In this document: piece by piece, positions 5,646 through 54,179 of the stretch
How positions within the stretch are numbered: the first letter of the stretch is position 1
How the letters are laid out: every line of letters begins with the position of its first letter
From: a virus
Strand: one strand, 5' to 3'
IMG/VR virus record: IMGVR_UViG_3300028549_002288
Length of the DNA stretch: 64,000 nucleotides
The notes under the pieces: generated by a model
What the model was told of the DNA's origin: nothing
Seen by the model: the letters and a program-made list of their open reading frames with translations, nothing else
Databases searched by the model: none
Position numbers and translations under genes: made by a program

Positions 5646-8600
5646 TCACTTAACGTTCTTTATTCCTAAGCTTACTTTACTCAGGTATAGATTATATATA
5701 CCGTTTTCGTTAGTAGAGTTCACAATACGTTTATCGGTACTGATAGGACTATATGTAAGCTCTATCAAATTCCCGTCCTCATCGTACGTGTTGAACTCAT
5801 CGCCCTCGAGGCCGGTACCTTTACCTTCGTAGACACTGCCTATAGTGTTTTTCAATTGAGCTGATAGAATAGTCTTATCGGCTATTTGCGCAGGGTACAA
5901 ATCCGATTCAATATATATAGCTATAAATACTTCATTGTCCAACATAGTTTTACCACTTATTGAAAATTTTGTGGTAACTCTGCCAGATACACCTTCCGTA
6001 TCCATTCTTTGTTCATCACATAATTTCGCTATCTTTCTCAACGACGGCGTCATATCCTTTAGTTCACAGCGATATAGACATTCTATCTTAACAATATTAC
6101 CTCCAATCGAATATTTCGGTATGTCGGTTTTCATTTCTGTCAGAATCTCTCTCACCTTCTCATCAGTCCATTTGCTTTCATCTATAGCCTGACCAGTAAT
6201 CAACATAGCTGGTTCATTCGCCTCCACCCTATCGCCTATATTTTTTATACCGCTAATATGTTGGTTACTCATAATAGTTACATCGGTTATTTTGGTTTTC
6301 TTGGCTGATAATTTTGAAAGTAACGACGCGTGTACCCCGATAGAATCCTCATACGTCTCCTGCGACTCTTTAAATCTAGTTCTAGCTAACTTTCCGGTTT
6401 TCATCGATACTTGTTTACTATAAAAGAAATCTGGTTGAAAAAAGGCAGAGTTGTATGTTATGTTTTCGCCTGCTTTTATAATATCGCCTACTTTACGCAT
6501 AGTAATAATTCTATGCGTGTGCGACGATTTGTTTTCTGGCCTTGTTGTGTAATTACCTAAGAAGTATTTACTTTCAACTTTTGTCTTCACATCGGCCACT
6601 ACAATATACGCTGTCTCTTTTATATTTATTACCTTAACATCCGTTAAGGCGTTAACGCACATGTTTTCCGACACAATGTTTCCTATCGTTGTTTCGTAAC
6701 CTGTTCTTAACGGCAGAGTCATCTCGCCGTCAATTGGTATGACACCGACTCCTTGTGTTTGTATGAAGTTAGCCCTTTTACTATCATCTTTATACATGTT
6801 AGGTATTGTTAGAAGTATAGAATCGTACACTTCCGAAGGTTCTAATTCCGCATCACTGATATCTATAAATCCCCGCGAATTGTTGATTCTAGGATTATTA
6901 ACCTTAAACCTAGTGATACCAGCGTCTCCGTTGTCTCTATTCGTTACTGATATCACACCTAACGAGGAATCGTGAAAGATTCGCGTATCTAGCGTCATCG
7001 CTTCCTTTGGCCTTCCTTCCACAAGATACGAGAGATCCGACGCTTGTCTTACATCAGCATACGGATTTAAATCATCTTTAAGCGCGACGTCTTTCGATAA
7101 TCTATCCCATACCGCATACGGCTTAACTTTAGGCGGTTTTGCTCCAAAGCTAGAGTAGTTATCGACCGAACCGATTGCCTTAGCTAGCTCGCTATACATG
7201 ATACCGGCAATCCTTTCGTGTCCTCTTAATCTGACATCCGACATATCCGTTTTAAATTTAACACTGTTTACTGTTAATAGACGATTAGCTTCTTTAATTA
7301 TTCCTACAAAAGTCGTAGGTTGTTTTAGTTCTTTAAGAACCGAAAGAGTTATGTCGTCTATAAACATTTTGTTTAAAAATTTTAATCTTTTAAACAAACT
7401 TCTCGGAAATCCAAGGATCTCGTTCATATTTCCTAAACCTGTTGAACCTTCTAGTTCAAAATTGACAGATTTGAGATATATGTGTTTCTTTACAACCCCG
7501 TTGAGTATTAATTTGCTTTCTTCATTTACGCCAGATAGAAGTACATGTTTATCAGCAAACCTTATCAACATTTCGTCGTTTTCTAGCTCATGGTGATTTC
7601 TACTAGGTAGGTTTACGGTATAGTCTATATTTAAAAACGCCATCGTCTGCCTAAACCCTAGTATGTTTATTAGAATAACTATAACGGGTATCTTATCTCC
7701 CATCATGCTAGCGTAGCTATATGTTTTATCTTCCGTCTCGTCTACGCCAATCAATTCATACAGACTTATGTCTTCAATCAACTTTTTGCCGTCATATCTA
7801 AATAACCTATCTGTCTTAATATCTACAAATAACTCAGCGTCCTTAGTACTATCATTATCGTTTCTTAACATACCACATAAGATGTATCCTTTTGATTCTA
7901 TCTCCAGTATCTTTTCTTTTGGCGTATTCGATATAGAAAACCTATCTCTATAGACAAAGAACATATCGTAATCTTTTATTCTATAATAACTAAATACATT
8001 ACTAGATTTTATATATAGCTTAGACATGGTCACGTCAGATGGTGTTTTGTTTCTAGCGACTTCTAGATAGAACTCTGTTTTTTCCGCAACGGACGCTTTT
8101 ATATTCTTATCGTTTTCGATGTCGCTCTCTACAAATATTTTAGAGAAATTGGATGTTAAAACCACAACTGAGATTGATATCTTTCTTATAGGCATATCTG
8201 AAATATGTTCCCTTAACCGATACTGATTACCGTAAACCTTAAAGGTGCCGTCTTCTTTTATAGTTGGTATAAATTGTCTCTGTGTATGTTCGCCATAGCC
8301 GGGAACAAACATCGATATCTTGTATTCTTCGAAATCAGATACGGCATCTTTATGAGGCGTTACTTCTAAGTTTGTTACGATGATTCCTTTCTTCTCCATC
8401 CCCATTATCGACTTCGTCATATCTTTACGAAACAGTTTCTTTACATAGGCTCTTTCGGCGTCTATGGATTTGTTACTACTCGATAGCTTATCAAATACGA
8501 CTCCTGAGTTATCTACAAATACTCTTTCGTCTATTAATATATCGTCTTCCGCGTAGTCTATATCTAGCTTATCTTTATTCGCCTCTCTTTTCTTTAAAGC

Positions 8601-9716
8601 TCCTTTAATGGCTTTAACATCTTTTTCGGTTATCGACACAGATAACTCGTTTAGTGCCGTTCTTAAGTCTTCCGACATAAATGATTCATCTTTTTTAAAA
8701 TACTCTTCTTTCTCTTCTACAATTTCTTGTTCTGGTGAAACGGTAGCTTGGTTATATTCTTTTAGTCCTTCTTCTATAAGCAATTCCGATTTTTCTATTC
8801 TTGTCTCTAACTCTTCCTCCGATATCTCCTCTTCGACATTACTATTCTCTACTATCGGAGTTTCGTTTTCGTTTTCTTCTTCCGTCGCTACGCTAACAGG
8901 CGAGTTTTTTAACTTTATAAACGATAGATATAGACCAGAAATTAACTGAATCGGAGTAATCCTTCTCATTCCGTCGAAATTCTTATCGAACATCGCCATT
9001 AACTTAAGCATCGATAATAATATCATCTTTTTACCATTGGTAAATATAATATATAAATTATCATACTTATCTTTATCTATCTTAGAGTATATACTTTTCT
9101 CTCCGTTTACGAATTTAAATAAATTCACTAGATTCATTATCCTATAATCGCTAACTTTTCGCGAAAGAACCTCGTTATCGAATCTCATCATTTTCTTAAG
9201 TTCTTTAAAATCTAATAACGTATCCGGCAGCGGAAATGCTAGAAACATAATATGGTCAAAAATAGTGTCGTTGATATTATCTATTATCGACGAATTAATG
9301 TCGTTCCAATACTTAAACGAGTTAAGACCGCCGGTTGAAAACGAATACGTAGCTAAAATATACGAATAATCCAGAATTGTTATATTGTTTTTTTCTGGGT
9401 TTGTTCTAAAATCTTTAATCCTTACGCTACTAACCGACTTATACTTCTTTATTATATCAAACCCATTCATGATATTCTTCTGATATCTCATGCTTTCGTC
9501 CTGTAGTTTTCGTACAGGATTTATCACAATTCTTTTATTTCCAAAAAAACTATGAGTAAGTGTACTATCCGACCTGAAAGAACATAGTATGATTTCTACA
9601 CCAAATGGAAAAATTTGCTCTTCCAAATCCAATAACTTAGGAGAAAAAATATCATTCGTCCTAAAAACACCATGGTTTTTGTAGTATTTAACTACTTTAT
9701 CCTTAATAATATCCAT
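5646..9716 (-). CDS. rpoB: Virion RNA polymerase beta-like subunit (phiKZ gp178-like)
   Basis: 1356 aa; RLRGHERIAG, DSSLGVIS..RDNGDAG, SKRANFIQTQ, QETYEDSI and ADKTILSAQLK match RNAP beta segments; central acidic linker. Confidence 0.88.
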   Translation of the reverse strand: MDIIKDKVVKYYKNHGVFRTNDIFSPKLLDLEEQIFPFGVEIILCSFRSDSTLTHSFFGNKRIVINPVRKLQDESMRYQKNIMNGFDIIKKYKSVSSVRIKDFRTNPEKNNITILDYSYILATYSFSTGGLNSFKYWNDINSSIIDNINDTIFDHIMFLAFPLPDTLLDFKELKKMMRFDNEVLSRKVSDYRIMNLVNLFKFVNGEKSIYSKIDKDKYDNLYIIFTNGKKMILLSMLKLMAMFDKNFDGMRRITPIQLISGLYLSFIKLKNSPVSVATEEENENETPIVENSNVEEEISEEELETRIEKSELLIEEGLKEYNQATVSPEQEIVEEKEEYFKKDESFMSEDLRTALNELSVSITEKDVKAIKGALKKREANKDKLDIDYAEDDILIDERVFVDNSGVVFDKLSSSNKSIDAERAYVKKLFRKDMTKSIMGMEKKGIIVTNLEVTPHKDAVSDFEEYKISMFVPGYGEHTQRQFIPTIKEDGTFKVYGNQYRLREHISDMPIRKISISVVVLTSNFSKIFVESDIENDKNIKASVAEKTEFYLEVARNKTPSDVTMSKLYIKSSNVFSYYRIKDYDMFFVYRDRFSISNTPKEKILEIESKGYILCGMLRNDNDSTKDAELFVDIKTDRLFRYDGKKLIEDISLYELIGVDETEDKTYSYASMMGDKIPVIVILINILGFRQTMAFLNIDYTVNLPSRNHHELENDEMLIRFADKHVLLSGVNEESKLILNGVVKKHIYLKSVNFELEGSTGLGNMNEILGFPRSLFKRLKFLNKMFIDDITLSVLKELKQPTTFVGIIKEANRLLTVNSVKFKTDMSDVRLRGHERIAGIMYSELAKAIGSVDNYSSFGAKPPKVKPYAVWDRLSKDVALKDDLNPYADVRQASDLSYLVEGRPKEAMTLDTRIFHDSSLGVISVTNRDNGDAGITRFKVNNPRINNSRGFIDISDAELEPSEVYDSILLTIPNMYKDDSKRANFIQTQGVGVIPIDGEMTLPLRTGYETTIGNIVSENMCVNALTDVKVINIKETAYIVVADVKTKVESKYFLGNYTTRPENKSSHTHRIITMRKVGDIIKAGENITYNSAFFQPDFFYSKQVSMKTGKLARTRFKESQETYEDSIGVHASLLSKLSAKKTKITDVTIMSNQHISGIKNIGDRVEANEPAMLITGQAIDESKWTDEKVREILTEMKTDIPKYSIGGNIVKIECLYRCELKDMTPSLRKIAKLCDEQRMDTEGVSGRVTTKFSISGKTMLDNEVFIAIYIESDLYPAQIADKTILSAQLKNTIGSVYEGKGTGLEGDEFNTYDEDGNLIELTYSPISTDKRIVNSTNENGIYNLYLSKVSLGIKNVK

Positions 9717-9790: not shown

Positions 9791-9992
9791 TAACCGCACG
9801 ACGGCTACCCCGTAGCCTTACGTACATGCTGTTCCTACGGAACAGAGAAGTAAGCATAGAGGGAGGCCGTAGCCTCCCTCTATGCTTATATATAATATAT
9901 ATATTAATTAACCCCTAACCCAGAACCCCCGGCCCGGGAACCCGGTCGGTATAATATATTATTCATATAATAGTTTTTTTTAAATAAAAAAA
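9791..9992. repeat. Copy 1 of a ~200-bp dispersed element: three hairpins, AT-only tract, C-rich/G-quadruplex block
   Basis: Near-identical to 41580..41810 by direct reading; hairpins at 9803-9817, 9829-9845, 9851-9888; C-runs at 9912-9943. Confidence 0.95.
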
Positions 9993-10003: not shown

Positions 10004-10034
10004 TGCCGTAACCCGCACCGAGCGGGTTACGGCA
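10004..10034 (-). terminator. Stem-loop terminator of the 73-aa gene
   Basis: 13-bp perfect stem tgccgtaacccgc/gcgggttacggca overlapping the stop codon. Confidence 0.75.
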
Positions 10035-10248
10035 TCATACCGTCGCTAATTTCGTAGAAATTAGCGTTAAACGACACTTCAGTGTCATAACTCTTTGCTA
10101 CAGTATGCAACAAGTTTTGAGGTCTATCTGTTCCGAATGCTGATGACAACATTCGGACCATTTTTTGTGCCATGCTCAACGTCGGGTACACGCCCAACGT
10201 CGCCATATCTTCTTGAGAAGATAGTAACTCTTCGTGTTTTACTAACAT
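10027..10248 (-). CDS. Hypothetical protein (73 aa), accessory cassette
   Basis: AAGGAG SD, upstream promoter motif and downstream hairpin; leader identical to that of 22518..22823. Confidence 0.75.
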   Translation of the reverse strand: MLVKHEELLSSQEDMATLGVYPTLSMAQKMVRMLSSAFGTDRPQNLLHTVAKSYDTEVSFNANFYEISDGMMP

Positions 10249-13402: not shown

Positions 13403-13447
13403 ATTTTCTCCATATTATAATTTATCAAATAAAACAAAAAAAATAAA

Positions 13448-13480
13448 TAGACATGGTAGCTAAAAGCTACCATGTCTATA
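13448..13480 (-). terminator. 15-bp stem hairpin followed by T-run on minus strand
   Basis: atagacatggtagct-aaa-agctaccatgtctat. Confidence 0.75.
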
Positions 13481-13534
13481 CGCAGGAGCGACTAAGTTTT
13501 TAGCATACCCCTGTGCCTCTCCTAGCTCTTACTA

Positions 13535-15334: not shown

Positions 15335-15445
15335 TTTCTATTCCTTTTTAATTTTAATTGCCTTACTAACAAATTAGCAAGTTTTGACTCTTCGAAGAAG
15401 AGTAACTATGTTTCATTTTTATTATATGTGAATAAAATTATTTTA
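15335..15445 (-). promoter_or_regulatory. Putative early promoter + two-hairpin leader (diverged copy)
   Basis: TATTCACATAT at 15424-15434; hairpins actcttc/gaagagt and cttactaa/ttagcaag; same layout as 16842-16950 and 43613-43720. Confidence 0.6.
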
Positions 15446-15525
15446 AACGGCATTGATTAGGAAACATATACATCAAACTATAAGTTCGTTTTCTTTTTTT
15501 TTGATAAATAATTAAAGGGGCTTAT

Positions 15526-18907: not shown

Positions 18908-18958
18908 TTTGACTCCTTATAACTTAAGTTCATTAATATTATATATAATGTAATTATA

Positions 18959-22823: not shown

Positions 22824-22869
22824 GTCTTACTCCTTATTTTTTTATTTTCATTTATATCATATGCGGATA
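22816..22869 (-). promoter_or_regulatory. Putative early promoter + SD + start, 48 bp identical to 10241-10288
   Basis: Direct sequence identity; motif TATCCGCATAT at 22859-22869. Confidence 0.75.
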
Positions 22870-22961
22870 GAAAAAAAATAAATTACCCAAAGCCGTGTAG
22901 GAACATAGATTGAACTTTAGTATCGGCCTGATTGAAATTTAAATTATTTTCGCCTATCGTA
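22867..22961. repeat. Second copy of terminase 3' end (non-coding remnant)
   Basis: Matches 20293-20388; abuts the hairpin at 22961. Confidence 0.95.
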
Positions 22962-22999
22962 GTAAATACGAAGTCCTATTTCAGGACTTCGTATTTACT
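22961..22999 (-). terminator. 17-bp stem hairpin overlapping stop of the 335-aa gene
   Basis: agtaaatacgaagtcct-atttc-aggacttcgtatttact. Confidence 0.75.
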
Positions 23000-29462: not shown

Positions 29463-30746
29463 TCAATATGGTTTAGAGTAATACCTCACTACTTTTGGAT
29501 CGGTATATATTATTCTACCAAAACAAGATTTAGGATCTTCGTTTCCTATTTCCAGTTTAAGACTTTTAGGGTCTTTGGCCCTACTTATAGCAACATAGAA
29601 TTGGCTCGGTAGAAATATACCTACAACGTCACATACCAGGTTATCTATAGACATGCCTTGCGATTTATGTATCGTTATCGCATACCCCAACTTAATTGGA
29701 AATTGAGACATAACGTACTCTACGTTCTTAGAGTACTCTCCGTTAAGTATACGCGATTTCTCGAGAGAGAAATTATTACGCTCTAGGGCGATTGTCTTAT
29801 TGCCCTTTCGTATGTAGATGACATCGTCGTCTATTTTCTCTACGATACCTCTATCGCCGTTAACGTACTCGTTCCATTTATTAACAGTAAATAGAACCGG
29901 AGCCCCTACCTTTATGACCAACACTTCCGGTGTAGTAAGGTTCTGTTTCCAGCTCGAAATCTCATTAGGATTTAGCTTCTTGTTTAACAATCTGCATTCT
30001 GCTACGATTCTATATTCTACGCCTTCGAGTTTACTAAGCTTCTCATCATTCATTTTATCAGCTTCGCTATTTGTCGCGAATAGGAAAGTCGCATCTTTAT
30101 GAACATTCTGATTTTCTGTAAGTTTAGTCAAAAAAGTCAAAACTTCCTCGTTGGCGTCGCCGGTTCTAATGAAATTTAAAATTCTAGCAAAAACCATATC
30201 TTTGGTTCTTTGCATTTTGGTTAGCGTAACAACCACTAAGCGCCAACTTTTCCAAATGCTACTCTCGAAAGCAAAGACATCTTTATTAGACATATAATTA
30301 CTCCTGTCTTTCAGAACAGGAGGTAGTTGATAAAAATCGCCGACTAATAATAATACACCTTTATACCTAGCCTGTTTTAGCCGGTAGTCTATCATTTCTA
30401 TTGTGGACGAACTTATCATAGAGATTTCATCTATGATAATCAACGATGTTGTTTTGCAAATCGCCTTGAACTTCTTTGTAGAAGTTCCGTATCTATACGC
30501 ATTAGACCTAAGCTCCTGTATGGACTTAGATACTCCTAGGGCGAAGAAACTATGTACAGTCTGTCCGCCTATATTAATAGCCGATACGCCAGTACTGCCT
30601 AGCGCAACAACTCCCTTTCCACTATCTCTGAAGTGTCGTATAATCTTTCTAGTTTGGTAACTTTTTCCGACACCGCCTCCGCCTGTTAGGAACACATTGT
30701 TTCCAGTTTCTAGTAAATGTATAAGCCCGTCCGTATCGAGTTCCAT
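29463..30746 (-). CDS. Pif1/RecD-like SF1B 5'-3' DNA helicase
   Basis: GGGGVGKS, IIDEISM, GDFYQLPPV, QRTKD, QFPIKLGYAITIHKSQG, YVAISRA. Confidence 0.9.
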   Translation of the reverse strand: MELDTDGLIHLLETGNNVFLTGGGGVGKSYQTRKIIRHFRDSGKGVVALGSTGVSAINIGGQTVHSFFALGVSKSIQELRSNAYRYGTSTKKFKAICKTTSLIIIDEISMISSSTIEMIDYRLKQARYKGVLLLVGDFYQLPPVLKDRSNYMSNKDVFAFESSIWKSWRLVVVTLTKMQRTKDMVFARILNFIRTGDANEEVLTFLTKLTENQNVHKDATFLFATNSEADKMNDEKLSKLEGVEYRIVAECRLLNKKLNPNEISSWKQNLTTPEVLVIKVGAPVLFTVNKWNEYVNGDRGIVEKIDDDVIYIRKGNKTIALERNNFSLEKSRILNGEYSKNVEYVMSQFPIKLGYAITIHKSQGMSIDNLVCDVVGIFLPSQFYVAISRAKDPKSLKLEIGNEDPKSCFGRIIYTDPKVVRYYSKPY

Positions 30747-30814: not shown

Positions 30815-31657
30815 TTACCAATCGCTCCATTTCTTCGTATGAGTTTTTAGCATGTCTGTTTTACTAAAAACTTCAGTTTTTTTTGCAGCTCTTTTGAACG
30901 ATACCGAATTGAGCTCATTCTTCTCGTTCATGTATTTCAAGACCGCATGAAGTTTAGTTCTAAAGACAATCCCAAACGGATGAGTCTTATACTCATCTAG
31001 TTTCGAAACCATTTTCCCATCCCCGTATATAATCAACATTACTTCCGTGAACGGAACAAATGACATGTCGTTTGTTCCAAATTTTTCAAACAACCTATAG
31101 AAGTCAGGCTTCTGAAGAATCTGGCCTGTAGTTGATCTTAATAAATCTACATTTTCCGTTTGTAAAAGATCAAACGGGAAGTGCGACATAATCAAAATCT
31201 TACCCTTTGGCAAATTAGTCGTTACCAAAGCCGGGAACTCAATTACGTTCTGCGCCTCTATCGAATTTGAAAACTCAATCATATTCCAAAACTCGCTAGT
31301 GAATCTCATACTGGTTTGTTTAAGAATATAATAGTTCGGTCTATAAAAGACAACCTCTTTTTTATTAGCTTCAAATAGAAGTCTTAGCGTTTCGAGCTCG
31401 CTGAAAATAGCATTTTTAAATTCTATGGTGTAGAACTTCGTTACTTTCAGGTATTTTGATAACGTTTTGTCTTCAAGAACGCTAAAAATATTTCTGACTA
31501 ACGTATAGAAGTTTATGTAAACGTAATCGTAATCTTCTATGTTAGCCATTTTCACCTCTCTGTTATTATCGTACCTATCATGAGTAGGCGCAAATAATGA
31601 TTCTAACGCCAAGCCCGTTGGTAACGATAAATCGAATGACGATTTCAAATATTGCAT
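30815..31657 (-). CDS. Conserved phiKZ-like protein, putative 5'-3' exonuclease/RNase H (FEN-like)
   Basis: SLPTGLALESLF, INFYTLVRNI, SHFPFDLL, VPFTE...YGD motifs as recalled; the activity is inferred. Confidence 0.5.
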   Translation of the reverse strand: MQYLKSSFDLSLPTGLALESLFAPTHDRYDNNREVKMANIEDYDYVYINFYTLVRNIFSVLEDKTLSKYLKVTKFYTIEFKNAIFSELETLRLLFEANKKEVVFYRPNYYILKQTSMRFTSEFWNMIEFSNSIEAQNVIEFPALVTTNLPKGKILIMSHFPFDLLQTENVDLLRSTTGQILQKPDFYRLFEKFGTNDMSFVPFTEVMLIIYGDGKMVSKLDEYKTHPFGIVFRTKLHAVLKYMNEKNELNSVSFKRAAKKTEVFSKTDMLKTHTKKWSDW

Positions 31658-32484
31658 TTAGCTCCTTCTATTTTAGGAGCCACTACTTTGGCGAAATTCA
31701 TGTAGTGGAATCTTCTGCTATTAACATATAACAAATAATATGCGATAGCCCTCCTGCTAAAACCTGTAATCCTTTCGAGTTCGTCGTGTGTTAACGAGAA
31801 AAGAGCGTAGATAAACTCTTCTCTCGTGGACGATGTATTGCTCGAGGCTACATATTCGACTATAAGCCTTGCGTCCACGCTTCTCATATTAGGTATAAGC
31901 ATTGACTTAAAGAATGTGATTATATCACAGCCTTTTGTTTTTTCTATCTCTGCGAATAACGAATCCGCAGTTTTTTCTCCAAACCTTTTCTGGACTATAA
32001 GAACATCCCTTTTTTCGTGTAGACTATAAAAATCTATAGGGTCTCTTACGAGCTTTAGGTCATATAGGGCTTTGACCTTTTCCGTTGATATTCCCTTTAT
32101 GTTCATGAATAGAGGAGATACAAAATCCTCCAAGACAGATATTCTCCTACCGCGACACTTTGGGTTAAAACAGACCGGCGATATGCCACCAACAACATGG
32201 TCACATTCCGGACACACTACAGGTGAAAAAATTTCTTTCTCCGCGCCGGTTCTTTTTTCAACTAGAACCTTAACTATCTTTAGGGCTTTTTGCTTCTTGA
32301 GTCCTAAGACAACAACGTCGCCAATTCGTAAATCTCTCCTATTGACAGTTGTGTAGCTGTCGAAAACAATATCTATGCTTTTTTTAAATACTGGCTCTAC
32401 TACTATAATAGGGATCAAATCACCATTTCTGTTGATTTTATTCTTTACTTTTACTATCTTGGCGATTTCTTCTTTTTCGCGCAT
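31645..32484 (-). CDS. C-terminal half of an NAD-dependent DNA ligase (OB, Zn finger, HhH), no adenylation or BRCT domain
   Basis: P....EPV, DLRIGD.V, CPEC..C.NPKC, NIKGISTEK, D.Y.L, FGEKTADSL..EIEKTK align by eye to LigA; own AAGGAG SD. Confidence 0.8.
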   Translation of the reverse strand: MREKEEIAKIVKVKNKINRNGDLIPIIVVEPVFKKSIDIVFDSYTTVNRRDLRIGDVVVLGLKKQKALKIVKVLVEKRTGAEKEIFSPVVCPECDHVVGGISPVCFNPKCRGRRISVLEDFVSPLFMNIKGISTEKVKALYDLKLVRDPIDFYSLHEKRDVLIVQKRFGEKTADSLFAEIEKTKGCDIITFFKSMLIPNMRSVDARLIVEYVASSNTSSTREEFIYALFSLTHDELERITGFSRRAIAYYLLYVNSRRFHYMNFAKVVAPKIEGAKCNI

Positions 32485-33464: not shown

Positions 33465-33638
33465 TTATAATATGAAGTTTATTTCAAAGCGCACCATCGA
33501 GTTACGGCGCAACATTGAGATATGTAAAAGTTCGCCGTAACCCGCAAACCCAAGCAGTATCTCATAACGGATATATCCATGCTTTACTAATAACAAGCGC
33601 AACATTTGTCTTATTTCGGCATGAATGCGTTCTAGCAT
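33465..33638 (-). CDS. Small ORF, 57 aa (MLERIHAEIRQMLRLLLVKHG...)
   Basis: Manual translation; fills the gap and overlaps the upstream stop. Confidence 0.5.
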   Translation of the reverse strand: MLERIHAEIRQMLRLLLVKHGYIRYEILLGFAGYGELLHISMLRRNSMVRFEINFIL

Positions 33639-39521: not shown

Positions 39522-41516
39522 CTATAAAGAAGCTATAGCTTCTAGTTTCTTGGCAGTTACAGATGATCTCATGATTGTCATCTGTTCTGGTGTTGTAATG
39601 GTAACTTCAACTGCCCATCTTTGTCCTCTTTTCACGTCCTCATCACTTCTACCAACAACAGCATCTATAATAAAGCTAGATGAATAATGAGTGTTGTTGA
39701 TTAAATCCATTAAGAACACTTTTATCTCTGCAAAGAGAGCGTCCGGCGGCGTCGTCTGGTCGCCGGCAAACGTGACCCATGTTTTCACTAACTGTGTCTG
39801 TATGTCGCACATGGCTAACATTGGCAATGTGCTGTCTAGAATGCTGTTAGCCTCTGGGTAGATGGTTTGATGTTTTGTAAATTTATATTGACCACCGCCC
39901 ATTGGTTCTGGATACATAGCATGTAGGTCGTGCAATGCCTTCTTGGTATGCTCATTAAGAATGCCTCCGGATATGCCGTCTATAAGTAACGGAGATCTTG
40001 TCATTCTAACGATCGCGTTATTATTCCATTCTCTGTTTTCGCCACCTGCTATATCCAATAACAACTGAGCCTTAATAGTAGCTAGCGGTATGTTATCAGA
40101 ATCTGAGTGCGAAACGATAATACCTCTAAACGCAGGAGTGTTAAAATACTTAGACTCTAACACGGAAGAATTGATTGCTTCCATAGCCGAAACGATAGCT
40201 ATCCTTTTTTCATTATCCATCACCTCACCATCTATTTCTGACGAAGCAATGAAGAAATTGTTCTGTCGAATAGCGATAAACTTATAGATAGATGTCTTTA
40301 CCTCACTACTAAAGCCGGTGTCGAGTAGCATGGTCTCTTCACTTGTTAATGGATTAAGCACGTAAGAATTTGGATCGTTGTATTCGGACAAAATCTTCAA
40401 CATCTCGTTATCCAAATCAGCATTTGTAAATGAACCGTCACTTCCTCCGGTCATACGATGAGCAATTCCTCTTCCGAAGTTTATTTCGCTTCTGTTCTTA
40501 CTGGCGTCCGGAATTATGATATTGTCTCGGTCTAAACATACTGTTCTGTACGGTACTTTTCTATTTTGACTTTTTAGGGATATGATATCAATAAGCAAAG
40601 GATAATCCTGAGCCGTCGCTACTGTTTCGAAGTCGTACTGTTCGATAGTATCTTCATTCACGAAAGCGAGTTCCGTATTTAAAATCATTTTGGATAATTT
40701 TAATATATTAGAATGATACACTTGAATTCCCATTTCTTCCGGGACTATAGGACCGTTTTCCAAGTTACTATTGAAGTACTTCTCGGTTACTTTAGCAAGA
40801 TCTCTTTCGATATTGTAACTGTCTACCGCCTCTTGCTGAAAGGACACGTGACTTTCCTTAATCCCTGTTAAGTTTTCCATAACTCCTTTAGAATTGAACA
40901 TGGAAAATACATATGTTAATGATTTCTCCATATCGTCATTTCGTAATTCTGGTGAAGACAATGAAATTCCAAGATTATTATAGTACTTTCCGTAACCGCC
41001 AAAAAGACTAAACATCGGAATCATAACAGATTTAACTCCGTTTATCTCCCGACACCCTTCTTTCTCCTCTGTAGAGATACCATCCTCAACAATGAATTTG
41101 ACTGAATATCCTGCTATTGTTGGGATTGTGGGATCTGTTTCTAGTGGTATAATGAAGCGTGCGTCAGCGTCCCTCTTGTAATTTTCGATATTGTCAGTAA
41201 TGATATCGGCGAAGAATGTTCTGCTAGCCATTTGTGCGTTATTGGGAACAAACCTCTTAATAATAAATGTACCGGTTAGCTTTTGCATATTTCTAGAGAT
41301 ATGGGTATAAAAAGTATTCCCTTTTTGATATATTTCCTCTCCGAAATAATGCGTGATCAAGTTAGAGTGAATTTTTAATTTACCTACAGGTCCTTTAGTC
41401 GCAGGCAATAAAAATAACGGAATCAACTGAGGATTACGTAGTCTGTCAAATACATAATTTGTATATGAATCGTCACGTACCCCTCTACCATCGTGATGAG
41501 GTATATTGAAACTCAT
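39522..41516 (-). CDS. Contractile tail sheath protein (phiKZ gp29-like)
   Basis: 664 aa; PQLIPLFLLPATKGP, G.YYNNLGISL, M.GGSDG, DTGF..EVK motifs. Confidence 0.8.
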   Translation of the reverse strand: MSFNIPHHDGRGVRDDSYTNYVFDRLRNPQLIPLFLLPATKGPVGKLKIHSNLITHYFGEEIYQKGNTFYTHISRNMQKLTGTFIIKRFVPNNAQMASRTFFADIITDNIENYKRDADARFIIPLETDPTIPTIAGYSVKFIVEDGISTEEKEGCREINGVKSVMIPMFSLFGGYGKYYNNLGISLSSPELRNDDMEKSLTYVFSMFNSKGVMENLTGIKESHVSFQQEAVDSYNIERDLAKVTEKYFNSNLENGPIVPEEMGIQVYHSNILKLSKMILNTELAFVNEDTIEQYDFETVATAQDYPLLIDIISLKSQNRKVPYRTVCLDRDNIIIPDASKNRSEINFGRGIAHRMTGGSDGSFTNADLDNEMLKILSEYNDPNSYVLNPLTSEETMLLDTGFSSEVKTSIYKFIAIRQNNFFIASSEIDGEVMDNEKRIAIVSAMEAINSSVLESKYFNTPAFRGIIVSHSDSDNIPLATIKAQLLLDIAGGENREWNNNAIVRMTRSPLLIDGISGGILNEHTKKALHDLHAMYPEPMGGGQYKFTKHQTIYPEANSILDSTLPMLAMCDIQTQLVKTWVTFAGDQTTPPDALFAEIKVFLMDLINNTHYSSSFIIDAVVGRSDEDVKRGQRWAVEVTITTPEQMTIMRSSVTAKKLEAIASL

Positions 41517-41579: not shown

Positions 41580-41810
41580 TAACCGCACGACGGCTACCCC
41601 GTAGCCTTACGTACCTGCTGTTCCGTAGGAACAGAGAAGTAAGCATAGAGGGAGGCTACGGCCTCCCTCTATGCTTATATATAATATATTATATATAATA
41701 TATATAGTAATAATATATATTAATTAACCCCTAACCCAGAACCCCCGGCCCGGGAACCCGGTCGGTGCAATTTTATTATTCATATAATAGTTTTTTTAAA
41801 ATAAAAAAAA
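41580..41810. repeat. Copy 2 of the ~200-bp hairpin/AT/G-quadruplex element
   Basis: Same orientation as 9791-9992; AT tract expanded; two hairpin loops reverse-complemented; C-runs at 41728-41759. Confidence 0.95.
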
Positions 41811-41823
41811 TAGAAATATTATT

Positions 41824-41860
41824 AATATACTAGGTCTAGGATAACTAGACCTAGTATATT
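41824..41860 (-). terminator. 16-bp stem hairpin after the 286-aa gene
   Basis: aatatactaggtctag-gataa-ctagacctagtatatt. Confidence 0.75.
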
Positions 41861-41861
41861 T

Positions 41862-42722
41862 TCAGCAAACTATATAAACCGAAGAACACATTGCGAAATG
41901 TTTTAGAAAAATCTCTGGAGATATTCTATCCGCCTCCGGTGACATCATGACCTCTGACAACTTGAATGTTTGTTGCCATGGTTTGGTCGTATCATCAGAT
42001 GACGGCTCGTCTATACGAACACCAATTACATCTGACCCGCTTCCATCATGACCTATTGTCATTTTGTTTTTTTCTTTATCCAATAGGTAGATGCTCTTAC
42101 CTGAACCGTCTTTGTTTGGTGTCAGGAATAGTCGCCATTCTGCCGAAATTTCAGCAGGGTGTATGTCGTGACCGACTGGGATTCCTCCGGTTGCTATTTT
42201 CCACGCCATAGGAATTGGCAGTTGTCCGTATAGAGCTTGAGCTGTTAGACCTATAGCTTCATAGATCGGTTTTCCGATCAATAGGTTACAGATTTGGAGC
42301 TTCGATAGCTTTCCGGCGTTATCGAGGATCTTGGGCAAATCGCATGTAACGAAAATCCCCATTTCATTACACACGTCATTGACAATTGCCATGGATTCGG
42401 CTGTTATGTCAAATCCCTGTTCTTTCAAATATTTTATCCAATTGATCGACACCTTTTCCAATATCAAACTTTCTGGCACTGGTACGAAAAACCAGTGTTC
42501 TGGAATTTCTTCATCGAAGGCTTGTGAGGCGTCGATAAATCCTCCATGGATTAGGTTATATATAGCCTCGGCGGAATAATCGATATTCCGCGCAACGATT
42601 ATAGATGTTACAAGATCAATGTACAAGACGTGCACTGCGTCTTTTTTACTTAACATCAGTAGAGATGTCATGATCTCTGCTTTCTTTTCTTTGAACATCT
42701 CTGTTCTTTCTATTGTTTCCAT
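41862..42722 (-). CDS. Hypothetical protein (286 aa)
   Basis: AAGGA SD; AT-rich promoter-like region near 42785-42800. Confidence 0.8.
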   Translation of the reverse strand: METIERTEMFKEKKAEIMTSLLMLSKKDAVHVLYIDLVTSIIVARNIDYSAEAIYNLIHGGFIDASQAFDEEIPEHWFFVPVPESLILEKVSINWIKYLKEQGFDITAESMAIVNDVCNEMGIFVTCDLPKILDNAGKLSKLQICNLLIGKPIYEAIGLTAQALYGQLPIPMAWKIATGGIPVGHDIHPAEISAEWRLFLTPNKDGSGKSIYLLDKEKNKMTIGHDGSGSDVIGVRIDEPSSDDTTKPWQQTFKLSEVMMSPEADRISPEIFLKHFAMCSSVYIVC

Positions 42723-42806
42723 TCTGTTCCTTTCTGTTTAAATTGTACGGCTCTTTAAAAGAGCACCTCTATGTTTCTTCAGTATAATATGTATATATAA
42801 AAAATA

Positions 42807-42844
42807 AAGTATACAGATGAGGGTTAACCCTCATCTGTATACTT
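42807..42844 (-). terminator. Perfect 38-bp palindrome containing the stop codon
   Basis: aagtatacagatgagggtt|aaccctcatctgtatactt. Confidence 0.8.
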
Positions 42845-43612
42845 ATCTATTTCGTTAAGGCTTCTTACTATAGTAAGAAGCCTTTCAATCGCACTTTCCG
42901 ACCACCCTACGCGGTGTTCAATGTCACTATAAAGAGAATAGCCACATCGGCTTCCTTCATATCGATTGAAGGGGAATCCTCCTTTTTCCCCTTTGTGCAA
43001 CTCAAATAAGAGTGCCATAGGAATCCTCTTTCTTCCCAGCGCCTTCAGTTGCACTTTTAGTTTTTTCACTAACTCTTCTTTTCGCAAAAATGCGAACTTA
43101 TTTTCCAACCGATAGTTGGAAAATTTCTCTAGTTTTTCGATAAAGAGATTTTTTAATTCTCTTATCTCCTCGATTTTTTTATTTTCGATCTCCTTGCGGA
43201 GGACGAATTTCGTCCCCGGGTCGTTGAAAAATAAGACGTGCGGTATATCCGTAAACTTATAGAAATCCACCCATGTGGCGTAGGCCTGTATTTGCTTACA
43301 AGCCTCTTCTAGGGGCTCGTACTGAGCCTTAAATCTTTCTTCATAGATGGCCAAGGCCCTAGAGGGATTTGTGTCCAAACAGGCCAGCTCGCTGGCCTTT
43401 AGTTTTACTTTTACTATTACCGGGTCGATCCCGATCGTTAACCATACATATTCAAGGTCGATTTCGGCCTTTGAAAGATATCTATAATCTATTCCTGATG
43501 AATAGATTGTGTTTTCGGAATTTGGCTTTTTCAGCACTTCCAGCCATTCAGCCGAAAATCCGACAAGTTCGACTTCTTCGCCGTACGCTTTTATACCAGT
43601 ATTGCATTTTAT
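42824..43612 (-). CDS. Hypothetical protein (~262 aa), probable ATA start
   Basis: Frame is open 25 codons upstream of the track GTG (43537), to an ATA lying exactly where ATG sits in the homologous leader at 16841. Confidence 0.65.
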   Translation of the reverse strand: MKCNTGIKAYGEEVELVGFSAEWLEVLKKPNSENTIYSSGIDYRYLSKAEIDLEYVWLTIGIDPVIVKVKLKASELACLDTNPSRALAIYEERFKAQYEPLEEACKQIQAYATWVDFYKFTDIPHVLFFNDPGTKFVLRKEIENKKIEEIRELKNLFIEKLEKFSNYRLENKFAFLRKEELVKKLKVQLKALGRKRIPMALLFELHKGEKGGFPFNRYEGSRCGYSLYSDIEHRVGWSESAIERLLTIVRSLNEIDKYTDEG

Positions 43613-48227: not shown

Positions 48228-48280
48228 TTTTTCTCCTTTGAAATTAAGTTCATTATTATTATATATGTGTATAAAAAAGA

Positions 48281-48318
48281 TAGAAATTACGAACAGTCAC
48301 CACTGTTCGTAATTTCTA
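48281..48318 (-). terminator. 17-bp stem hairpin over stop codon
   Basis: tagaaattacgaacagt-cacc-actgttcgtaatttcta. Confidence 0.75.
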
Positions 48319-54100: not shown

Positions 54101-54179
54101 GCTATTTTCTCCTAACTGTTTTTTATCAATAAAACAGTTAGGAGAAAATAGCGAGGTCCTTTACGGACCTCGCTATTTT
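54101..54179 (-). promoter_or_regulatory. Overlapping hairpins: terminator (54145-54179) and 22-bp SD-sequestering stem (54101-54152) with TTGATAAA at the loop
   Basis: Perfect inverted repeats read directly; they share 54145-54152 and are mutually exclusive. Confidence 0.75.

Follow-up and report, generated by a model that had tools for sequence, protein, structure and literature searches.

The window analyzed here is a stretch of 64,000 nucleotides of viral DNA, with ~37% GC and genes mainly on the minus strand. It encodes RNA polymerase beta-like proteins of the phiKZ-type multisubunit enzymes (phrog_3148 and phrog_2986), a tail sheath of the phiKZ gp29 type, a tail tube, a phiKZ vertex protein and a PIF1-family helicase, and in the phage collection it matches jumbo phages best, at just 21-23% identity. 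Given these phiKZ-type genes and best matches, we assign the window to an uncultured phiKZ-like giant phage. This phage is known from metagenomes only, in the form of two JGI contigs from one sample (98.8 and 45.5 kb) and Logan contigs of SRR21758067. The window was joined to the JGI and Logan contigs to give a 98.6-kb composite, which spans window-equivalent positions -11,950 to 86,653 of an incomplete genome; the full genome is likely to be larger than 200 kb. The genes of this phage also include those for an RNase H, a split family-B DNA polymerase (PolB) and a Suv3-like helicase.

Two intergenic sites of the window carry the same non-coding sequence of ~200 bp as a direct repeat, at 9791-9992 and 41580-41810. 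Positions 9791-9900 and 41580-41689 are 93% identical, and the stretches that hold the G-rich block (9897-9955 and 41713-41771) are 97% identical. Judged by this alignment, a 200-nt repeat of such identity cannot be chance. The initial annotation had reported this pair and had suggested a search for more copies and their spacing. BLAST analysis against neighboring contigs located three further copies just outside the window, so that the module exists in at least five copies of ~200 bp, all non-coding. All five are in direct orientation and 20-32 kb apart, with gaps of 20.1, 31.8, 24.7 and 21.5 kb. The copies and the genes around those in the window are as follows.

5646-9716, minus strand: RNA polymerase beta-like gene (1356 aa), downstream of copy 1
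9791-9992, minus strand: copy 1 (c1), between the terminator of the 73-aa gene and the proximal promoter and SD of the RNA polymerase beta-like gene
10027-10248, minus strand: 73-aa gene, upstream of c1
29463-30746, minus strand: PIF1-family SF1B helicase gene (PF05970, E = 3.5e-27), a possible G4/R-loop-processing factor, unlinked to the copies
39522-41516, minus strand: tail sheath gene, downstream of copy 2
41580-41810, minus strand: copy 2 (c2), between the terminator of the 286-aa gene and the proximal promoter and SD of the tail sheath gene
41862-42722, minus strand: 286-aa gene, upstream of c2
L013:3822-4041, window-equivalent ~66.4 kb: copy 3 (c3)
L025:16520-16741, window-equivalent ~-10.2 kb: copy 4 (c4)
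L029:1-75, the broken start of a Logan contig, window-equivalent ~87.9 kb: 3' part of copy 5 (c5)

At c1, c2, c4 and c5, the terminator hairpin of an upstream minus-strand gene is followed by the element and then by a gene whose separate promoter lies beyond the repeat. This promoter is of class B (T-rich/TTGATAAA) ahead of the RNA polymerase subunit, sheath and 234-aa genes, and of class A (CATATAATA..AATGAA) ahead of a 387-aa gene. The c3 site lies at the 3' ends of two convergent genes, those of the Suv3-like helicase and a 131-aa ORF. We considered whether the element is the promoter or leader (5' UTR) of the downstream gene; this was ruled out by the class A and B promoters outside the repeat and by c3, which faces a convergent gene. 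Given these settings, the element is, as far as its surroundings tell, an autonomous module rather than a promoter or leader of its neighbors.

The spacing of the copies is more even than expected by chance: when 5 of 46 intergenic sites were drawn at random, a minimum gap this large occurred in 0.06% of trials (P ~6e-4), in what is a post hoc test on five points from an incomplete genome. The Logan contigs are interrupted at c2, c4 and c5, as a repeat would predict. The copies are also mosaics, in that c2 agrees with c1 in its G-block, with c3 in its spacer and upstream terminator (H0), and with c4 in one point variant. This pattern indicates gene conversion, or recombinational homogenization, among the copies.

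We also compared the phage with its nearest relative (found in Trout Bog and a MAG; tail sheath 47% identical), which is syntenic over ~25 kb, the position of c2 included. Throughout this ~25 kb of syntenic DNA, the relative has neither the element nor a G4-like window nor a comparable TA tract. The two genes next to c2 are likewise missing from the relative, and c2 thus comes with a two-gene insertion. Scans for the exact patterns of the G-block, H1 and H3 gave no related match in viral_contigs, metagenome_contigs or genome_contigs; 8 matches in metagenome_contigs were unrelated chance matches, mostly in GC-rich or coding DNA.

Anatomy of the element

On the minus strand, each complete copy shows the same order: promoter-like box, G-rich block, variable TA tract and then the hairpins H3, H2 and H1. 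The module starts with a T-run, an A-run and a C, followed by the invariant box TATTATATGAA. A spacer that varies between 12 and 14 nt separates this box from the G-block, which consists of the invariant CCGACCGGGTTCCCGGG, five G residues, a variable octamer and four G residues. The repeat terminates in GGTTA. We found no conserved ORF and no coding potential in the element. Its parts in the two copies of the window, together with the adjacent hairpins (H0), are listed below.

9962-9992, minus strand: c1 promoter-like module (T-run, A-run, C, TATTATATGAA), invariant in four copies
9907-9949, minus strand: c1 G-rich block, a G4 motif (G4Hunter 1.96) that holds a CCGGG..CCCGG inverted repeat
9889-9906, unstranded: c1 TA-rich tract, DUE-like and of variable length, fifth least stable 30-bp window of 98.6 kb
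9851-9888, minus strand: c1 H3, 17-bp perfect stem and 4-nt loop TACG (CGTA in the JGI assembly), terminator-type
9829-9845, minus strand: c1 H2, 7-bp stem and 3-nt loop
9796-9825, minus strand: c1 H1, GGG loop on a core stem of 6 bp, enclosed by an imperfect outer stem of 5 bp; the repeat runs on to 9791
10004-10034, minus strand: H0 beside c1, locus-specific terminator hairpin of the 73-aa gene, which abuts c1 outside the repeat
41779-41810, minus strand: c2 promoter-like module (T-run, A-run, TATTATATGAA)
41723-41765, minus strand: c2 G-rich block, a G4 motif
41678-41722, unstranded: c2 TA-rich tract, least stable duplex of the 98.6 kb at window sizes of both 30 and 50 bp
41640-41677, minus strand: c2 H3, loop CGTA (TACG in the JGI assembly)
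41618-41634, minus strand: c2 H2, loop flipped relative to c1
41585-41614, minus strand: c2 H1, core and outer stem
41824-41860, minus strand: H0 beside c2, terminator hairpin common to c2 and c3, loop flipped

Motifs of four G-tracts of at least three residues occur in the 98.6 kb only in the four complete copies, and all of them lie on what would be the non-template, RNA-like strand. They are canonical G4 motifs, with loops of at most 7 in c1 and c2 and of at most 12 in c3 and c4, where one tract has been lost. Their G4Hunter scores are 1.76-1.96, as against a 99.9th percentile of 1.2 for the genome, and GGGGG is otherwise under-represented (16 observed versus 47 expected). When we calculated ViennaRNA minimum free energy structures with G-quadruplexes allowed, Watson-Crick hairpins formed in seven of eight folds, and a marginal G4 appeared in c2 only. 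The C-runs interleaved in the G-block can pair with the G-tracts, which are 3-5 long, and we count this against a G4-based origin reading.

When the 30-bp duplexes of the 98.6 kb are ordered from the least stable upward, the TA tracts of c2, c3, c4 and c1 come first, second, third and fifth, respectively. The weakest duplex lies within ~60 nt downstream of the promoter-like box, as expected of an unwinding element.

Most of what the initial annotation had said about this anatomy was confirmed. The A/T-only tract is longer in c2, as described, and it alone makes the length difference between c1 and c2 (~18 nt versus ~45 nt); these tracts are in addition among the least stable duplexes of the 98.6 kb. 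The 17-bp perfect stem is present at both 9851-9888 and 41640-41677, and the predicted Pif1-like helicase at 29463-30746 is borne out by its match to PF05970. As to the five G-tracts that had been pointed out, the minus-strand G-block is indeed identical in c1 and c2, but the fifth tract, the telomere-like GGGTTAGGG, is replaced in c3 and c4, and four tracts are kept across the copies. Three hairpins are present as well, but the statement that all of their tips carry CCGTAG/CTACGG does not hold in general: H2 of c3 carries TGC, and the hexamer is unenriched elsewhere.

Hairpins and loop flipping

On either strand, folding of the element region is much stronger than that of shuffled sequence (z = -6.6 and -6.3). 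Perfect hairpins whose stems measure 12-26 bp are found every ~1.5-2 kb in this phage, where they are the usual terminators, and the 17-bp stem of H3 is therefore not unusual here. H3 was flagged as terminator-like on the minus strand in both c1 and c2 for its 17 pairs and the 5 T among the 8 nt that follow, which is the form of an intrinsic terminator, and its tail is U-poor compared with typical terminators of this phage. The H3 pattern scan also showed that the core of the stem serves as a convergent-gene terminator in other, unrelated jumbo phages. In c5, H1 forms a 14-bp palindrome without mismatches, and its loop is flipped. Because c2 and c3 share H0, their homology runs ~55 nt beyond the repeat.

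The loops of H2 and H3 are reverse-complemented between c1 and c2, and those of H0 and H1 also flip between copies. Comparison of the window with the JGI assembly over ~52 kb revealed 13 differences, four of which are loop inversions, located in H3 of c1, in H3 of c2, at 43087-43091 and at 54160-54164. An element-specific flip-flop was ruled out, given that two of the four flips are in other hairpins. Loop flipping is, on these comparisons, a general process of palindrome micro-inversion that acts genome-wide, and it offers a clean natural case of palindrome-mediated micro-inversion outpacing point mutation. With loops that flip in this way, a strand-specific loop sequence is not required.

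This bears on the complementary-strand origin of phage G4, to which the element had first been compared. That origin belongs to an ssDNA genome and uses three stem-loops for primase, with strand-specific recognition. The element resembles it in having three adjacent stem-loops, but its loops are reverse-complemented between copies and between assemblies, and the H2 loop is mutated in c3. As the loops flip genome-wide and are unconserved on either strand, we abandon this analogy.

Two further candidates were rejected. CTACGG/CCGTAG is no iteron, since it is neither enriched outside the element (33 observed versus 24 expected) nor strictly kept inside it. As to a 5'/3' closing helix, or terminal inverted repeat, the prediction was confined to c2 and c3; in c1 and c4 the helix is disrupted, with no compensating change.

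Promoter-like box and a candidate origin

The sequence TTATATGAA occurs six times in 98.6 kb, each time on the minus strand, in intergenic DNA and after a T/A-run. These sites are the four complete copies and two paralogous sRNA-like units, X1 and X2.

L027:1700-1925: X1, headed by TTATATGAA on the minus strand
L027:3185-3395: X2, headed by TTATATGAA on the minus strand

Both units fold strongly (z = -8.2 and -5.7) and have terminators of 17 and 26 bp with U-tails at their ends, and because of these two properties they look like sRNA genes. A motif scan with X1/X2 returned a single type of match, in a lysine-rich coding region, which we attribute to chance. A close variant of the box is found ~55 nt ahead of the SD of another gene, and the relative phage has a repeated gene-proximal promoter module built around the same 12-nt core as the box. 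These occurrences suggest that TATTATATGAA is likely a promoter, and we consider it rather probable that the element is transcribed from it. With the box as a promoter, the G-block would form the 5' part of the RNA, with the G-rich strand as the non-template one; the G clusters on that strand start ~12-14 nt after the box. A sigma-70 consensus scan of c1 and c2 showed nothing convincing. We also looked at a small peptide, as the ATG in the TATGAA box opens a frame of 20 codons through the G-block of c1. However, the spacer of c2 differs by 1 nt, which puts the frame out of register, and an SD is lacking; the frame was therefore rejected as coding sequence.

We propose that the copies may be short non-coding transcription units that act in cis as R-loop/G4-primed replication origins, and we put the probability of this reading at about 0.35. 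It starts from properties that can be observed directly, namely the anatomy, copy number, orientation and spacing of the copies, the uniqueness of their G4 motifs, their minimal duplex stability and the promoter-like box that they share. In this proposal, an early-type promoter (T-run/A-run and TATTATATGAA) would start a minus-strand RNA whose first ~15-60 nt would comprise the block of G clusters. The G-rich RNA on the C-rich template, together with the G4-capable displaced strand, could then form a persistent R-loop, and the hybrid would end at the TA tract, the easiest melting point of the genome. There, the phage DNA polymerase might take over the 3' end of the RNA, perhaps after cleavage by the phage RNase H, whereas H3, with H2 and H1, would halt transcripts that do not prime and insulate the next gene. 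The resulting zone of replication initiation would be unidirectional.

Several observations were counted in favor of this reading. A role in cis is indicated by the even spacing, the uniform orientation and the two extremes at the DNA level; spacing and orientation suit such a role on the chromosome better than they suit a trans-acting RNA. The genes downstream have separate promoters, and c3 has no downstream gene. In addition, the phage encodes an RNase H, a split family-B DNA polymerase and both Suv3-like and PIF1-like helicases. On the opposing side, the syntenic region of the relative is without the element, no relative of the element emerged from the exact-pattern scans, and homogenization is the fate of any repeat, which weakens an origin-specific meaning of the similarity among the copies. 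GC skew, which had been recommended as a check, gave no signal: it tracks gene direction throughout, with no inflection at the repeat copies. We list this on the opposing side too, but a skew of this kind is uninformative on where replication starts.

The proposed arrangement has precedents. At oriF (uvsY) and oriG (gene 34) of T4 and at the primary origin of T7, a DNA unwinding element comes directly after a phage promoter, and a persistent hybrid made by the transcript primes the leading strand; work from the Kreuzer laboratory reportedly established several origins per T4 genome. Similarly, the element has a conserved promoter-like box with the weakest duplex within ~60 nt of it. Unlike the element, however, the T4 and T7 origins have no G-cluster/G4 block and no trio of hairpins, are not repeats of one another and are unevenly spaced. 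A promoter, G clusters near the 5' end of the RNA and an unwinding element, in this order, make up the general layout of transcription-primed origins, for which T4 oriF/oriG, T7, ColE1 and CSB II stand as examples. The ori/rep sequences of yeast mitochondria, which belong with these examples, combine multi-copy, dispersed GC clusters with AT stretches and a promoter in a very AT-rich genome, and the element is likewise a multi-copy GC/AT module in an AT-rich genome. At mitochondrial CSB II, G-rich RNA on a C-rich template forms a stable hybrid, or a hybrid G4, by which transcription is ended and the primer made (PMC3488243). The element has no sequence relation to CSB II, ColE1 RNA II or ori/rep, and differs from them in that its G-tracts are 3-5 long and lie amid C-runs with which they can pair. 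It also differs from CSB II and ColE1 in its system, a dsDNA phage with multisubunit RNA polymerases of its own.

Alternative readings and implications

Given that H3 is of the ordinary terminator type, a plain sRNA unit from promoter to terminator would explain much of the anatomy. The element might then be a multi-copy gene for a trans-acting sRNA of ~130-220 nt. Such an RNA would have a 5' domain rich in G (possibly an rG4), then an AU linker and 1-3 terminal hairpins; it would act on targets of the host or the phage, be it as a sponge/decoy or by G-rich pairing, and the several copies would raise its dose. We regard this as possible but doubtful. It gains from the box in common with the sRNA-gene-like X1 and X2 with their strong intrinsic terminators, from the terminator-like H3 on the minus strand and from the strong folding z-scores. 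Short TSS-to-TTS units are also documented in 201phi2-1 and phiKZ, where an intergenic promoter is followed by a terminator within 250 nt upstream of structural genes, including tail genes, along with intergenic and 5'UTR-derived sRNAs (PMC11512511). With its promoter-like box, the element would share this intergenic promoter-to-terminator layout, and also its place upstream of structural genes. However, those units are single-copy and conserved in position among genera, whereas the element, missing from the nearest relative, has at least five near-identical copies that contain G4 motifs and TA tracts.

The searches for RNA families speak less for such an sRNA. No Rfam 15 family reached its gathering score anywhere in the window, where the best sub-threshold match was NrrF (29.7 bits versus 60), and a tRNA/tmRNA search of the window found none. 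None of 50 predicted pairs was doubly changed among the copies, which are too alike for compensatory changes to inform. The conserved ncRNA that had been offered as the alternative in the initial annotation has some support from the shared promoter-like box, and none from covariation or Rfam. Further points against an sRNA are a TA tract of 20-55 nt that would vary in the middle of the RNA, the variable spacer of 12-14 nt and the U-poor tail after H3, as compared with the usual terminators of this phage. The absence from the relative also disfavors it, and the even spacing and the extreme instability of the duplex would be left unexplained.

A regulatory cassette is another reading. In T4-type phages, PeSLs (promoter-early stem-loops) are repeated intergenic units of a promoter and a stem-loop at the borders of accessory genes, and they recombine with one another. 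The element could be a comparable mobile regulatory cassette, a terminator/insulator with a promoter, that marks the borders of transcription units and accessory insertions and has been spread and homogenized by intergenic recombination; the G-block and TA tract would then do no more than block or insulate transcription. Like a PeSL, the element has a promoter-like box and stem-loops, and c2 sits beside a two-gene insertion that is missing in the relative. Every copy is placed exactly in the interval from a terminator to the promoter that follows it, or at a junction of convergent genes, c2 and c3 have the upstream H0 in common as well, and the mosaic copies carry a signature of gene conversion. 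Other repeated promoter/leader modules exist in this phage (families D1, D3 and D6), and the terminators of giant phages share sequence motifs genome-wide (PMC11512511). PeSLs are, however, shorter, clustered in hyperplastic regions and without a G-block or TA tract, whereas the copies of the element lie evenly 20-30 kb apart. Ordinary intergenic regions of this phage consist of one hairpin and a short promoter, and unique G4 motifs, minimal duplex stability, strict co-orientation and even spacing would not be expected of a cassette. In addition, direct 200-bp repeats around 20-30 kb of essential genes would be a recombination hazard unless selected. We find this reading somewhat less convincing than an sRNA gene, and unlikely overall.

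It is improbable that the element is a selfish, non-autonomous element without a function for the phage, either resembling a MITE or of the type of IS200/IS605 or REP, which is mobilized in the form of folded single strands, and that it spread recently in this lineage. Such an element would be lineage-specific, and the repeat is indeed absent from the relative and from all collections scanned; the high identity between copies, their single orientation, the subterminal imperfect hairpins and a weak complementarity of the start of the G-block to the 3' end of the repeat in the folds of c2 and c3 would also be in keeping with it. However, this complementarity is lost in c1 and c4 without compensation, and the true ends of the repeat show neither terminal inverted repeats nor a target-site duplication, unlike a MITE. 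No transposase is among the Pfam annotations listed for ~100 kb of this incomplete genome, and the even spacing would be unexpected for random insertion.

Least probable of all is some other DNA site in cis, such as a recombination hotspot, a site for packaging or series initiation, or one for anchoring or organizing the phage nucleus, at which a protein would bind the invariant CCGACCGGGTTCCCGGG or cruciform hairpins: even spacing, uniform orientation, a GC-rich invariant segment with an internal 5-bp inverted repeat, and a TA tract with perfect palindromes able to extrude under supercoiling would suit it, but none of the copies has a candidate binding protein linked to it, a spacing of 20-30 kb makes no sense for headful packaging of a genome that is likely larger than 200 kb, and the promoter-like box would be left unexplained.

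We return to the transcription-primed origin as the preferred reading and regard the element as a variant of either promoter-plus-DUE origins or short phage non-coding units, with a putative function. As an origin candidate it is compact, at ~200 bp, and can be synthesized. In a wider and more tentative version of this reading, a jumbo phage of the nucleus-forming (phiKZ-like) type would have a regular array of identical unidirectional origins, each with an early promoter and a G4-stabilized R-loop that ends in the weakest duplex, and with processing by the PIF1-like helicase and RNase H. To our knowledge, neither the place nor the mode of the start of DNA replication is known for the phiKZ-like giant phages. 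No primase is known from these phages, and non-canonical priming has been proposed (PMC4889955), which we count in favor of the origin reading. If the reading is true, the element would be the first origin, and its priming mechanism the first, to be defined for this group of phages. Should it prove instead to encode an sRNA or to work as an insulator cassette, it would still be unusual as a regulatory device present in several copies.

Inverted hairpin loops

Over ~52 kb compared, the window and the JGI 3300033558 assembly of the same phage show 13 differences, four of which are micro-inversions of hairpin loops; per site, such an inversion is far commoner between the two than a point change. 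The window sequence was identical to the Logan SRR21758067 contigs in this comparison.

Hairpin loops inverted between the window and JGI 3300033558
9868-9871, loop of H3 (17-bp perfect-stem, terminator-type hairpin) in repeat copy 1
41657-41660, loop of H3 in copy 2
43087-43091, hairpin loop
54160-54164, hairpin loop

In c5, a copy of the ~200-bp repeat lying outside the window, a quasi-palindrome has been turned into a perfect one, which is a template-switch signature.

Promoter-like sequences and sRNA-like units

Two sRNA-like intergenic units, X1 and X2, lie beyond the window end (locus L027) and flank the genes adjoining the RNase H gene.

sRNA-like units
L027:1700-1925 (window-equivalent about 84.7-84.95 kb), minus strand, X1
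L027:3185-3395 (window-equivalent about 83.26-83.47 kb), minus strand, X2

The two are paralogous, and both carry a promoter-like box of the TATTATATGAA type, as in the repeat. Their 5' domain (~55 nt) is conserved, with a GGCCGC..GCGGCC stem around an A-rich loop; the middle part is divergent between them, and the 3' end is a 17- or 26-bp terminator followed by a U-tail. Neither unit matched Rfam.

Upstream of many window genes, we found two further recurrent promoter-like classes. Class A (CATATAATA..AATGAA) lies ~25 nt 5' of the start codon of mainly small genes, and class B (T-rich sequence plus TTGATAAA) ~20 nt 5' of the ribosome-binding site of genes for the sheath, an RNA polymerase subunit and other structural proteins.

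Example promoter-like sites in the window
13403-13534
15335-15525
18908-18958
22824-22975
48228-48296

Window genes and comparison with other phages

A PIF1-family helicase (PF05970, 95.9 bits) is encoded by the ORF at 29463-30746, its tail comprising RecD-like SH3 and UvrD_C_2; for the neighbouring ORF at 31645-32484, the sole match was a weak LigA OB-domain (19.7 bits, below cutoff). An ~81-bp overlap of the two JGI contigs of the phage, at about 33516-33597, marks an assembly break.

Two minus-strand genes (286 and 237 aa; 41862-43537), neither with a family match, lie together with copy 2 between a 356-aa gene and the sheath gene. Given that the syntenic relative has just a 157-bp divergent intergenic region at this position (L007:9844-10000), the two genes represent an accessory-gene insertion adjoining the repeat. 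Trout Bog assemblies of the relative differ in gene content, and the relative carries a repeated module of its own, a promoter plus structured leader of ~110 nt, 5' of consecutive small genes.

Promoter-leader modules of the relative
L007:13740-13875
L007:14440-14578
L008:14280-14400

GCATAGAGGGAGGC with its complement, the core of the H3 stem, was found again as a convergent-gene terminator in other jumbo phages, namely Pseudomonas phage pPa_SNUABM_DT01 and IMG/VR jumbo-phage contigs whose GC is much higher.

Recurrences of the H3 stem core
L001:1490-1535
L002:885-916
L003:9225-9256
L004:972-1003

This recurrence could be due to chance, or it could reflect a common terminator motif akin to the conserved terminator described in phiKZ (bioRxiv 10.1101/2023.10.13.562163).
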